A DNA stretch of 64,000 nt, from the IMG/VR virus record IMGVR_UViG_3300045988_124250; one strand, given 5' to 3'. A program made the position numbers and the translations under genes. Of the stretch, positions 62,482-63,294 are shown one piece after another (the first letter of the stretch is position 1; every line of letters starts with the position of its first letter). The stretch is from a virus. Under the pieces are notes generated by a model. The model was not told the DNA's origin. It did not search any database and worked only from the letters and a program-made list of their open reading frames with translations.

Positions 62482-62520
62482 TGGCAGGCCATCTAGGACT
62501 CGAACCTAGGTCCGCGGTTT
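62482..62520 (-). tRNA. trnW: tRNA-Trp(CCA) 3' exon
   Basis: AA-ACCGC-GGAC-CUAGGUUCGAGUCCUAG-AUGGCCU-G-CCA. Confidence 0.5.
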
Positions 62521-63258
62521 CCATCTAAAATGCTTAAATATTATTCCAATCCTCCTCTCCAATTTTTTTTATATCTCCACTTCTACGAGGCAAATTATAA
62601 CTATCACACCATTTTCGCACAGCATTATCAGAAACATTATATTTTCTTGCTATTTGAGTAAAAGGTTTATTGCGAATTAAATTTTTTAATTCTTCTCTAG
62701 AAGGTCTTTCTGCCATTCGTAAAAGTTTATTATTACAAGGAATACATCGGAGAGAGCCTGGATTAATTTCGCATCCACAGTCTTTACAATAAAATTTTTC
62801 TTTATGAGAAGAATTATATAGTTCTTCATCAGATAACTGTTTATATTGTGAAAACATATTTGTTATTAAATAAGTTTCATCATCAAAAGAAATTGTTTTT
62901 TGTAAAGATGTTTCATCAACAGGCACTAAATACACTTTATCATTCCATACAGTCGCAAAATAATCAATTTCATCATTTGTATATTTATGCTTACTTCCTA
63001 AAGAACTTTTCACATTTTGTGTGGTACAAGGAAATGTAAATGATGATTTTGAATTACTTATAGATTTTTTAATTTGAATTTTTAATAATTCTGTCCCTGT
63101 ATCAACTAATAAATCATATTTTGAAGAATTATAAGTTGGAACAGAAATATTAAATCCATACCGCAAAAATTCAATTTGAACTTTTAATTCAATTATCTAA
63201 CCTTTAATTAAATTTTCACTTAACACGTTATTTTATGGAATAATATTAAGTTTTCAAA
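62521..63258 (-). mobile_element. ~738-nt intron in anticodon loop of trnW(CCA) carrying PD-(D/E)xK endonuclease-like ORF
   Basis: exon halves pair perfectly (AGGUCAU/AUGGCCU, GCGGU/ACCGC); insert ends with G. Confidence 0.5.
62534..63166 (-). CDS. PD-(D/E)xK-type endonuclease-like protein with Zn-ribbon and C-terminal HTH, encoded inside trnW intron
   Basis: DLLVDTGTELLKIQIK (D...ExK), CKDCGCE...CIPCNN, ARKYNVSDNAVRKW. Confidence 0.45.
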   Translation of the reverse strand: MRYGFNISVPTYNSSKYDLLVDTGTELLKIQIKKSISNSKSSFTFPCTTQNVKSSLGSKHKYTNDEIDYFATVWNDKVYLVPVDETSLQKTISFDDETYLITNMFSQYKQLSDEELYNSSHKEKFYCKDCGCEINPGSLRCIPCNNKLLRMAERPSREELKNLIRNKPFTQIARKYNVSDNAVRKWCDSYNLPRRSGDIKKIGEEDWNNI

Positions 63259-63294
63259 TGGAGACCGCTATGCTAGCCGCTACACCAATGACCT
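63259..63294 (-). tRNA. trnW: tRNA-Trp(CCA) 5' exon
   Basis: AGGUCAU-UG-GUGUAGCGGCUAGCAUA-GCGGU-CUCCA; anticodon arm matches E. coli tRNA-Trp CCGGU-CUCCAAA-ACCGG. Confidence 0.5.

Follow-up and report, generated by a model that had tools for sequence, protein, structure and literature searches.

Introns of bacteria and bacteriophages are held to be self-splicing, belonging to group I or group II, and tRNA splicing by enzymes is seen as characteristic of archaea and eukaryotes. In archaea, bulge-helix-bulge introns with homing endonucleases (e.g. in rRNA genes) are spliced by EndA and RtcB. Heal-and-seal systems, such as T4 Pnk with Rnl1 and yeast Trl1, repair damage or follow Sen/EndA cleavage. 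The intervening sequences of bacterial 23S rRNA are excised by RNase III with 2-nt overhangs and the resulting fragments are not religated. The intron of cyanobacterial tRNA-fMet is a group I ribozyme located at 33/34, after U33 (PMC13011429). The giant TAG-recoded Lak megaphages of the gut carry 'enigmatic' introns in tRNA anticodon loops (Devoto et al., 2019; PMC6784885). These introns are 79–114 nt in length, lack an ORF, contain tRNA-like (T-arm) elements, are unclassified by Rfam and differ in presence or absence among close relatives; neither an endonuclease nor a helix rule has been reported for them (PMC6784885).

The locus described here lies on a 64,000-nt stretch of viral DNA (IMG/VR record IMGVR_UViG_3300045988_124250; hereafter the window) and is a tRNA-Trp(CCA) gene with a long insert in its anticodon loop (Table 1). 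The exon and insert coordinates of a first-pass annotation were exact on rechecking, and its proposal that an insert splits the anticodon loop of tRNA-Trp(CCA) is supported, with the break after A36 and the insert being mobile. The Trp identity that it proposed was likewise confirmed by ARAGORN: the joined exons form a 75-nt tRNA-Trp(CCA) ending in CCA, and both they and the empty-site alleles show an intact cloverleaf with the CCA anticodon, A1:U72 and G73 of a bacterial-type tRNA-Trp. An uninterrupted gene, GGTCTCCA followed directly by AAACCGCGG, is present in contigs L001 and L003, and these alleles fix both junctions to a single base. In the flanks of the gene, L003 is identical to the window at 694 of 700 bases upstream and 651 of 700 downstream, while L005 and L006 carry the same insert with 735–736 of 738 positions identical. 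The uninterrupted alleles and the near-identical inserts together show that the split gene is not a chance arrangement. A tRNA-Arg(CCG) called by ARAGORN in intron mode, with the junction moved by 1 nt, is contradicted by the empty-site alleles. The split gene was missed by default ARAGORN and by Rfam, and the tRNA finders used here gave Arg, Leu or Ser in place of Trp, Gln or Thr. Since finders miss or misassign split genes, phage tRNA and suppressor inventories, and the recoding inferences drawn from them, are incomplete.

Table 1. Features of the split tRNA-Trp locus and of other genes of the window considered in the text
Feature	Position	Strand	Remarks
Exon 1 of tRNA-Trp(CCA)	63294-63259	minus	tRNA positions 1-36; AGGTCATTGGTGTAGCGGCTAGCATAGCGGTCTCCA; last base is anticodon A36
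Intervening sequence	63258-62521	minus	738 nt, between tRNA positions 36 and 37; junctions from empty-site alleles
Exon 2 of tRNA-Trp	62520-62482	minus	tRNA positions 37-76 including encoded CCA; AAACCGCGGACCTAGGTTCGAGTCCTAGATGGCCTGCCA
Closing helix, 5' strand	63236-63261	minus	C34-A36, intron +1 to +7, unpaired A+8, then +9 to +23
Closing helix, 3' strand	62521-62548	minus	-1 to -3 (UGG) with anticodon; -4 to -10 with +1 to +7
Homing endonuclease ORF	62534-63226	minus	230 codons plus stop; PD-(D/E)xK domain (PF11645), four-Cys ribbon, HTH tail
Leader hairpin	63301-63331	minus	10 bp, GTTAAGGAAG / CTTCCTTAAC; 6 nt upstream of exon 1; read from sequence
Promoter-like 25-mer	63331-63355	minus	AATATAATATAATATATATAGAAAG; one of 12 copies, all on minus strand
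Amber suppressor tRNA(CUA)	49016-49089	minus	Putative link to TAG readthrough of the endonuclease ORF
ATP-dependent RNA ligase, DraRnl-like	26015-27385	minus	Candidate sealing enzyme; putative link to the intron
Pnkp-like P-loop kinase	24301-24804	minus	AAA_33, E = 3e-22; bacter_Pnkp kinase region, E = 1.3e-14
Metallophosphoesterase	23546-24301	minus	Adjoins kinase; Metallophos_2, E = 9e-11

The promoter repeat previously placed 15 nt upstream of exon 1 is in fact a 25-mer that ends 36 nt upstream of it. The window contains 12 copies with three or fewer mismatches (chance expectation 0), further ones lying directly upstream of genes such as those of the RNA ligase and the tRNA-Leu containing a group I intron, and the repeat probably acts as a promoter. 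The leader hairpin between the 25-mer and exon 1 is kept in L001, L003, L005 and L006.

The ORF occupies 94% of the insert. As initially described, it encodes a PD-(D/E)xK nuclease with a zinc ribbon and an HTH; it scores 61 bits against PF11645 (curated cut-off 26.1; E = 1.7e-16) and its top match by sequence and by fold is 2OST. The suggested resemblance to I-Ssp6803I holds for both the fold and the catalytic residues, although the motif is not the 'ELLK' first put forward but E13…D38…Q51-x-K53, as in I-Ssp6803I, with all four residues conserved. The reading frame had been given as 62534-63166; its stop end stands but its extent does not, because the start is a GTG at 63226 and the frame contains a TAG at 63199-63197. 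This TAG corresponds to Q in homologues, and the Pfam match (residues 8–112) spans it. ORF coverage of the window rises from 65% to 78% when TAG is taken as sense, and the amber suppressor tRNA(CUA) is probably needed for reading the endonuclease ORF across its TAG. Synonymous-site variation is flat along the ORF, which speaks against a ribozyme embedded in it.

More than 500 relatives of the endonuclease were found in a protein search, and at least 36 related genes lie at position 36/37 in ten kinds of phage tRNA, with inserts of 729–829 nt. Identity among the endonucleases of interrupted tRNAs is only 33–76%, which indicates an old family specialised by tRNA type. In a genome scan of cellular hosts, full-length relatives occurred on two MAG contigs only; the family is thus apparently restricted to phages. 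Mobility of the intervening sequence at the DNA level is well supported by its precise presence or absence at one site in near-identical phages and by the PF11645 endonuclease. An enzyme of the I-Ssp6803I type would presumably cut alleles without the intron in their palindromic anticodon-arm DNA, and the insert would be copied exactly between positions 36 and 37 during repair. Target-site duplication, or ligation into endonuclease overhangs, was rejected as it predicts a direct CCA…CCA repeat, whereas CCA…TGG is observed.

The first-pass annotation pointed to a group I intron, which would be a self-splicing ribozyme with a looped-out endonuclease ORF. PF11645 endonucleases are indeed known in group I introns of tRNA-fMet and tRNA-Arg(UCU) (PMC13011429), but of the four defining group I features that we tested none is present here. 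Rfam searches for the conserved catalytic core (P3–P9) gave no match to Intron_gpI (RF00028) at E ≤ 10 in 62300-63500, and no group I match in 20 further loci with related endonucleases. The same settings recovered a true, ORF-bearing group I intron in tRNA-Leu(UAA) of the same window (45360-45530, E = 0.0025), a neighbour that in itself lends the assignment some plausibility. The non-coding RNA of that control amounts to 218 + 103 nt (321 nt in total); that of the insert is 32 + 13 nt, and in 15 relatives it is 11–45 + 13–15 nt. Group I introns in bacterial tRNAs are at least 184 nt in length (PMC13011429), and 32 + 13 nt leave no room for a core of about 180 nt or more. Immediately before the 5' junction stands anticodon base 36, which is A, G or U and not a conserved U; it forms a Watson–Crick pair with intron base -3, at the 3' end, rather than a U–G pair with a guide sequence near the 5' end of the intron (P1). 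The terminal G, which would suit a group I intron, is only the partner of C34 and is not conserved across relatives: the last intron base complements base 34 and is G in Trp, A in Pro, Thr and Gln, and C in His, Cys and Asn. We consider group I self-splicing extremely improbable. A group II intron, judged by GUGYG…AY ends, domain V, a reverse-transcriptase ORF and more than ~600 nt of RNA structure, was also rejected: the insert starts with UUUGA and ends with GAUGG, has no Rfam group II match and carries a PD-(D/E)xK nuclease ORF.

What the relatives share is a long helix that closes the insert and includes the anticodon. In the window the helix is present in both the MFE and the centroid fold of the full 813-nt precursor and its duplex has z = -6.5; on the 3' strand, -11 and -12 (A and C) are unpaired, and the stretch from -13 to -28 runs into the final codons of the ORF and its stop. 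Median values for the closing duplexes of 31 introns are 32 bp, -29 kcal/mol and z = -5.3. At all of the at least 36 loci the last three intron bases pair with the anticodon and intron bases 1–7 pair with -4 to -10. The anticodon:intron-end combinations are CCA:UGG, CUA:UAG, GCA:UGC, UGG:CUA or CUG, UGU:ACA, UUG:CAA or UAA, GUG:CAC and CAU:AUG, together with UUA:UGG through G–U pairing. Covariation was assessed on 29 distinct relatives with junctions placed by anticodon-stem position alone, covering tRNA-Trp, Cys, Pro, Thr, Gln, His, Asn and Met as well as CUA/UUA suppressor-type tRNAs. Paired cells make up 90.8% of those observed, compared with 60.2% after shuffling and 30–49% with the partner shifted by 1–3 columns; ARAGORN calls without the closing helix had been discarded as false joins or a different class, so that the pairing percentages may be somewhat inflated. 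Changes on both sides were seen at 18 of 18 helix pairs. Owing to its G–U pairs, the helix is specific to the tRNA-sense strand, and terminal inverted repeats of a transposase were rejected on the same grounds, as conserved U–G/G–U positions leave the two ends unequal as DNA but paired as RNA. In the Trp, Pro, Cys, Thr and suppressor groups, an A/CA internal loop is always placed 7 bp from the 5' junction; the groups of Gln, His, Asn and Met retain the helix but not the loop sequence. In the modelled duplex the junctions fall on opposite strands, 3 bp apart with a 3' stagger, flanked by two seven-position helices in an approximately twofold-symmetric arrangement.

Our literature search found no description of this endonuclease-bearing phage tRNA intron class, and the insert of the window is best read as a member of a large, previously undescribed class of non-ribozyme, endonuclease-carrying phage tRNA introns. 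Versions lacking the endonuclease were not encountered, either as mini-introns (ARAGORN with short introns) or as ORF-less copies (399 kb of related DNA searched with a covariance model built on the helix). The insert could instead be a selfish cassette that entered a dispensable phage tRNA gene by homing and inactivates it without being spliced, the closing helix serving the endonuclease message through stability, processing from the tRNA transcript or translational control. The structure fits no known splicing machinery, intron-less alleles occur in the same metagenome, tRNA-Trp can come from the host, free-standing endonuclease genes (GIY-YIG) are frequent in the window and the anticodon loop of L044 has three C-to-U changes, all of which would suit such a cassette. 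A stem that serves only the message, however, needs neither a match of the last three bases to each anticodon nor a spacing of 7 bp that parallels the anticodon arm. The interrupted genes also show no decay: in silico splicing gave valid tRNAs for 32 of 32, and 14 of 20 cloverleaf pairs show compensatory changes among 12 intron-bearing tRNA-Trp genes. The age and tRNA-type specialisation of the endonuclease family, and the fact that the interrupted gene is the sole tRNA-Trp in each array examined, likewise argue against selfish insertion, which we regard as unlikely but deserving of serious consideration. Intact exons may alternatively result from homing that took place recently, into alleles that were still functional, and not from selection acting on genes with the intron.

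The reading that we favor, with a probability of roughly 0.55, is that the insert is a mobile intron defined by its helix, which a protein or RNase P-type nuclease would cut and an RNA ligase would seal. In the precursor, the anticodon stem is prolonged into a closing helix of ~30 bp consisting, in order, of the anticodon paired with the last three intron bases, +1 to +7 paired with -4 to -10, the A/CA internal loop and a variable stem. A structure-specific endonuclease would make two cuts; it might be a dimeric nuclease of the phage or of the host, RNase P cutting each 7-bp helix at its 5' end or, less likely, the encoded homing endonuclease. We know of no RNase documented to cut double-stranded RNA with a 3-nt 3' stagger. 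With the anticodon stem keeping the two tRNA halves together, the phage RNA ligase would then seal them after healing of the RNA ends, where required, by the kinase and phosphoesterase. The in-frame TAG may delay translation of the endonuclease until the suppressor tRNA is present, which would keep the closing helix from being unwound by ribosomes.

No bulge-helix-bulge with 3-nt bulges and a 4-bp helix was obtained in several registers by hand, and no EndA homologue was detected among the scanned ORFs of the window, which covers 64 kb of a genome of several hundred kb. Protein-spliced tRNA introns of archaea and eukaryotes are marked by that motif or by position 37/38 together with an anticodon–intron helix; the junction here is 36/37, an unbulged continuous helix runs over the 5' junction, and anticodon–intron pairing is present. 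RNase III, with a 2-nt 3' stagger, would cut at G-2/G-1 and yield an 8-nt anticodon loop; the two junctions are in fact offset by 3 nt. Towards its 3' end the ORF contains UUGGAGA, a possible internal 'splint' that complements the spliced junction UCUCCAA; it falls within the codons of IGEE, is not retained in L009 and was therefore treated as chance.

The closing helix and internal loop, perhaps with the tRNA body, might themselves catalyse both cuts as a new self-splicing or self-cleaving RNA, with ligation being reversible or carried out by RtcB or Rnl-type enzymes. The fixed distance of the A/CA loop and the symmetric geometry are compatible with this idea, as is the fact that the ends left by small self-cleaving ribozymes can be joined by heal-and-seal enzymes. 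We nevertheless judge it improbable, given that no Rfam ribozyme matched at E ≤ 10, that the loop sequence is not kept in four tRNA groups despite the helix, and that the ~45 non-coding nucleotides lie mostly in plain Watson–Crick helices. Somewhat more doubtful still is that the endonuclease also cuts RNA. In sequence the RNA helix repeats the left half and the center of the enzyme's DNA target, and the junctions would coincide with the cut points of both active sites if cleavage leaves 3-nt 3' overhangs; the right half of the RNA helix, however, is unlike the DNA half-site, the catalytic residues are a metal-dependent DNA-nuclease set and not the EndA triad, and the RNA to be cut is also the message from which the enzyme must be made. 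To our knowledge, no PD-(D/E)xK homing endonuclease cuts double-stranded RNA.

The RNA ligase matches PF09414 with E = 2e-5 and 25.2 bits, slightly below the 27-bit cut-off, and TIGR02306 with E = 3e-9; it is of the nick-sealing type and not of the T4 Rnl1 anticodon-loop type. The kinase and the metallophosphoesterase are candidate RNA end-healing enzymes for the intron. Large phages often carry RNA-repair sets that counter host anticodon nucleases, and the presence of these three genes is thus not specific evidence for splicing.

We put at about even odds that these inserts represent the first enzyme-spliced, ribozyme-free, homing-endonuclease-driven intron class of the bacterial world, in which pairing of the anticodon with the last three intron bases, inside a pseudo-symmetric helix, sets the splice sites, and cleavage by a protein or RNase P is followed by sealing with the phage RNA ligase. 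If so, a ribozyme-free phage intron class that keeps tRNAs intact would break the self-splicing-only rule for bacteria and their viruses and would be an independently arisen functional analogue of archaeal and eukaryal tRNA splicing. The 'enigmatic' megaphage tRNA introns of 2019 would also gain a concrete structural rule, and phage RNA-repair enzymes may have a second job.

Compared with the I-Ssp6803I system, the phage insert shares the Pfam family and fold of the endonuclease, the location in a tRNA anticodon loop, a presumed palindromic anticodon-arm DNA target and homing-type presence/absence polymorphism. It differs from the cyanobacterial tRNA-fMet intron in having no ribozyme core and in lying at 36/37 after any base, and its enzyme has an additional zinc-ribbon and HTH domain of ~100 residues. 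The Lak introns resemble the phage class in their anticodon-loop location, TAG-recoded giant phage context, lack of an Rfam class and variable presence; the insert of the window, in contrast, is 738 nt long with a PD-(D/E)xK ORF and an anticodon-pairing helix and has no T-arm-like hairpin. As in heal-and-seal systems, there are genes in the window for a kinase, a phosphoesterase and an ATP-dependent RNA ligase that are candidates for rejoining tRNA halves broken in the anticodon loop, although the ligase is DraRnl-like rather than Rnl1-like as in T4. A long stem formed by the two ends closes both the phage insert and the 23S rRNA intervening sequences, but the 2-nt stagger of RNase III, the double-strand-specific nuclease that removes the latter, would here leave G-1 on exon 2. 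The archaeal bulge-helix-bulge introns are, like the phage class, mobile, endonuclease-bearing and non-ribozyme, with a pseudo-symmetric exon–intron helix that sets the junctions; cutting by a protein and joining by a ligase are established for them and only proposed for the phage class, whose helix belongs to a bacterial virus, lacks the 3-nt bulges and 4-bp central helix, and is continuous with a 3-bp offset.

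The tRNA-Trp(CCA) gene of the window is split into two halves that join at A36|A37 to give a 75-nt tRNA that has A1:U72 and G73 and whose CCA is encoded. Default ARAGORN and Rfam searches list 26 tRNAs at 43.9–61.8 kb and miss the split gene; ARAGORN in intron mode detects it, but with a junction set 1 nt too early, and reports tRNA-Arg(CCG). Four close relatives of the locus were found among viral contigs in a scan for exact matches to the exon 1 end. Two of these (L001 and L003) carry tRNA-Trp without the insert, reading ...GGTCTCCAAAACCGCGG..., and keep the leader hairpin and downstream gene found in the window; these empty-site alleles set the junction and fix the anticodon as CCA. 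They agree with the first-pass annotation, which had described a tRNA-Trp(CCA) split by an insert of ~738 nt with these exon coordinates and end features, and contradict the tRNA-Arg(CCG) call. L003 shares 694/700 upstream bases and 651/700 downstream bases with the window, and the inserts of the other two relatives, L005 and L006, match that of the window at 736/738 and 735/738 positions. The presence/absence polymorphism is clean among close relatives and no target duplication is seen, as would be expected for homing.

The endonuclease ORF of the insert runs from a GTG at 63226 through an in-frame TAG at 63199–63197. The ORF proposed earlier (62534–63166) does encode the endonuclease, but its TTG start at 63166 truncates a frame that extends to the GTG. 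When the TAG is translated as Q, residues 8–112 match Pfam PDDEXK_5 (PF11645; E = 1.7e-16), an alignment that spans the TAG position without a break. Most of the 528 related database proteins have 229–232 residues and are 65–76% identical; the database relatives start MLNENLIKGQIIELKV and have Q at the TAG position. In four related contigs (L009–L012) the corresponding ORF contains two in-frame TAGs. The top PDB sequence match is I-Ssp6803I (2OST), and E13, D38, Q51 and K53 are conserved, bearing out the earlier assignment to I-Ssp6803I-type PD-(D/E)xK endonucleases. The Zn ribbon and HTH reported with it are also present: the C-terminal 100 residues form a four-Cys ribbon and an HTH, a tail also found in HNH and GIY-YIG endonucleases from other phage inserts. 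It has been proposed for recoded phages that a stop in frame delays an intron endonuclease to late infection (bioRxiv 10.1101/2021.08.26.457843). A free-standing relative, a 174-aa PDDEXK_5 ORF (contig L157, 18271–18872), begins 2 nt past an intact tRNA-Arg(UCU), a tRNA type in which PF11645-bearing group I introns occur in Bacteroidota.

Judged from its sequence, the host is a TAG-recoded giant phage. All genes of the window lie on the minus strand, and an 829-aa ORF is ~41% identical to ORFs of uncultured phages of 462–735 kb. Many ORFs contain in-frame TAGs, counting TAG as sense lifts ORF coverage from 65% to 78%, and a CUA suppressor is part of the tRNA array; TAG is thus apparently translated as an amino acid, which is Q in homologues. 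The 25-mer AATATAATATAATATATATAGAAAG occurs 12 times in the window (0 expected by chance), with every copy on the coding strand directly 5′ of genes or tRNAs, and is probably a phage promoter. Homing-type nucleases heavily populate the window, including three GIY-YIG endonuclease genes, one of which, situated within the tRNA array, encodes NUMOD1 and HTH domains. Two tRNA calls are odd (58222–58294 and 58438–58507, minus strand): one is a tRNA-Phe to which ARAGORN assigns the anticodon AAA, and the weak call at 58438–58507 (35.8 bits) is made by Rfam alone.

Features of the window, with supporting matches
Feature	Coordinates	Strand	Remarks
tRNA-Trp(CCA) exon 1	63294–63259	-	First tRNA half
tRNA-Trp(CCA) exon 2	62520–62482	-	Second tRNA half; 738 nt between halves
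tRNA-Leu(UAA), split	46140–45287	-	Exon 1 46140–46107, exon 2 45338–45287
Group I intron of the tRNA-Leu(UAA) gene	46106–45339	-	768 nt, inserted after U34
HNH endonuclease ORF of tRNA-Leu intron	45888–45442	-	Three in-frame TAGs
CUA suppressor tRNA	49016–49089		In tRNA array
DraRnl-like ATP-dependent RNA ligase	26015–27385	-	PF09414 E = 2e-5; TIGR02306 E = 3e-9
Pnkp-like kinase	24301–24804	-	AAA_33 E = 3e-22
Metallophosphoesterase	23546–24301	-	Adjoins kinase; Metallophos_2 E = 9e-11
RlaP nucleotidyltransferase	29277–30083	-	PF10127 E = 1e-4
PIN-PhoH protein	18263–19516	-	PhoH E = 2e-28; PIN_4 E = 8e-12; three in-frame TAGs
GIY-YIG endonuclease genes	59284–59928, 12149–12838, 5951–6919	-	
25-mer copies	25282, 27407, 36332, 41348, 46238, 46410, 46763, 51651, 60355, 61834, 61929, 63331	-	

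The first-pass annotation had read the insert as an intron and proposed a search with group I models as a check. A permissive Rfam search of 62300–63500 gave no group I or II match at E ≤ 10, and no group I match was found in any of 20 further related loci. The tRNA-Leu(UAA) intron serves as a positive control within the window for this type of search: neither default ARAGORN nor Rfam at its gathering thresholds detects the split gene, and Rfam Intron_gpI matches the intron at E = 0.0025, with the AGAGACUA...GAAGACAUAGUCC core included. Non-coding sequence amounts to 218 + 103 nt in the control, compared with just 32 + 13 nt in the Trp insert and 11–45 + 13–15 nt in the inserts of fifteen relatives; bacterial tRNA group I introns are 184–894 nt in length (PMC13011429). 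Synonymous-site variation is even over the whole endonuclease ORF, so no conserved RNA core is concealed within it. The last intron base and the base preceding the 5′ junction both follow the anticodon and vary across the family. Lacking an Rfam match, sufficient non-coding RNA, a hidden core and constant junction bases, the insert is rejected as a group I intron.

A metagenome scan with the endonuclease alignment gave 549 confirmed relatives, and 80 loci were kept; the full-length relatives (33–76% identity) are located in phage tRNA arrays. Among reference genomes, two MAG contigs are the only places with full-length relatives. Junctions were assigned from the anticodon stem alone (5 nt past its 5′ side and 2 nt ahead of its 3′ side), which resolved 29 distinct inserts, with seven more from direct search. 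All are at 36/37, in tRNAs for Trp, Cys(GCA), Pro(UGG), Thr(UGU), Gln(UUG), His(GUG), Asn(GUU) and Met(CAU) and in two suppressor-type tRNAs with anticodons CUA (amber) and UUA, and every family gene spliced in silico is a valid tRNA. The tRNA-Gln bodies are typical of bacterial tRNA-Gln (UGGGGUAU...). ARAGORN intron-mode calls of a '72-nt Leu' and a '74-nt Ser' are too short for class II tRNAs; the anticodon-stem rule, not ARAGORN, therefore gives the right identity. At three loci (L051, L052 and L118) the same intron type lies within amber-suppressor tRNA(CUA) genes, which look to be derived from tRNA-Trp since their anticodon arm equals that of tRNA-Trp.

In every family member, anticodon bases 34–36 pair with the final three intron bases and intron positions +1 to +7 pair with −4 to −10. 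Beyond this 7-bp helix, the Trp, Pro, Cys, Thr and suppressor groups have an A that faces CA without pairing, next C/U9-U10-U11 paired with A-A-G/A, and then a variable stem that extends into the last codons and stop codon. In an ungapped alignment of 44 columns, standard pairs occupy 90.8% of cells (shuffles 60.2 ± 1.5%; slid partners 30–49%), changes occur on both sides in 18/18 helix pairs and the covariation score is 0.805 (shuffles 0.223). The cleanest case is that of the amber-suppressor copies, in which the tRNA-Trp anticodon arm has changed from CCA to CUA and the intron end from UGG to UAG. In the UUA-bearing tRNA (L044), the anticodon still pairs with an unchanged UGG via two G-U pairs, and this gene may be either ochre-suppressor-like or in decay. 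G-U pairs make up 46/522 cells, with U-G at +2:−5 in 18/29 sequences, which argues for selection on the helix as tRNA-sense-strand RNA rather than as DNA inverted repeats. Across 31 introns, the median values for the closing duplex are 32 bp, −29 kcal/mol and z = −5.3, and the duplex is retained in both the MFE and centroid folds of the full 813-nt precursor (z = −3.9).

The precursor comprises a left helix of seven positions (27–33 with 37–43, counting U33:A37 as paired), a central 3-bp helix of anticodon and intron end, and a right 7-bp helix that ends at an irregularity (internal loop). One strand has the 5′ junction after base 36, and the opposite strand has the 3′ junction after base −1; a two-fold axis passing through pair 35:−2 would relate two cuts so placed, which would leave 3-nt 3′ overhangs. 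Either junction also marks where a 7-bp helix has its 5′ end, and the partner strand of that helix runs on as a 3′ tail. Splicing would consist of two endonucleolytic cuts at positions defined by the helix, after which the tRNA halves, kept together by the anticodon stem, would be ligated. The window encodes an RNA repair set of metallophosphoesterase, Pnkp-like kinase, DraRnl-like ligase and RlaP nucleotidyltransferase and, apart from it, the PIN-PhoH protein. These enzymes could heal and seal either kind of RNA end; since such sets also serve tRNA repair, they are permissive rather than specific evidence for splicing. As to the cutting enzyme, one may speculate on RNase P acting at both 7-bp helices, a dimeric nuclease, the PIN-PhoH protein or the homing endonuclease itself.

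The main rival explanation is a selfish insertion that is not spliced. Twelve intron-bearing tRNA-Trp genes are widely divergent, with compensatory double changes in 14/20 cloverleaf pairs, and no second tRNA-Trp was found in the array of the window or in two 20-kb arrays of relatives. The intron end is tuned to each anticodon, implying long residence in each tRNA type. Together, these observations are good, though indirect, evidence that the insert-bearing RNA is processed to a working tRNA. For an insert with a mobility signature, an endonuclease of this family, no known ribozyme features, a conserved helix and intact exons, the best explanation is that it belongs to a new and widespread class of phage tRNA introns that are defined by a helix and driven by an endonuclease, and for which we infer splicing.

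Our literature search found no paper on a class of this kind. A second class of endonuclease-bearing tRNA inserts (L042 224–1034, L086 565–1521, L098 148–1069, L103 406–1210 and L111 1083–1887) encodes HNH or GIY-YIG nucleases with a C-terminal Zn-ribbon/HTH domain as in the Trp insert. These have no anticodon-pairing helix and carry a T-arm-like hairpin (..ATAAGTTCAAATCTTAT..) immediately ahead of the putative 3′ junction. Other RNAs adjoin phage tRNA arrays (L057 2573–3163, L070 578–1034 and L088 588–661): ROOL RNA at 283 bits, a GOLLD-like RNA whose 102 bits fall short of the gathering score, and a Y-RNA-like match that is weak (E = 0.003). Two short inserts in related loci (L068 1521–1666 and L070 76–204) are ORF-less. 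One, of ~76 nt in tRNA-Trp, is closed by GGGGCG/CGCUCC followed by an ACCA tail and so resembles an acceptor stem; the other, of 57 nt in a tRNA-Gln body, has a T-loop-like hairpin inside. Their form suggests processing by tRNA end-maturation enzymes. Both resemble the tRNA introns of Lak megaphages, which were termed enigmatic and fall in no Rfam class (Devoto et al., 2019; PMC6784885). The Lak introns are 79–114 nt long, with no ORFs and with tRNA-like parts within (Table S6 of that work), an architecture unlike that of the endonuclease-bearing, helix-defined class.
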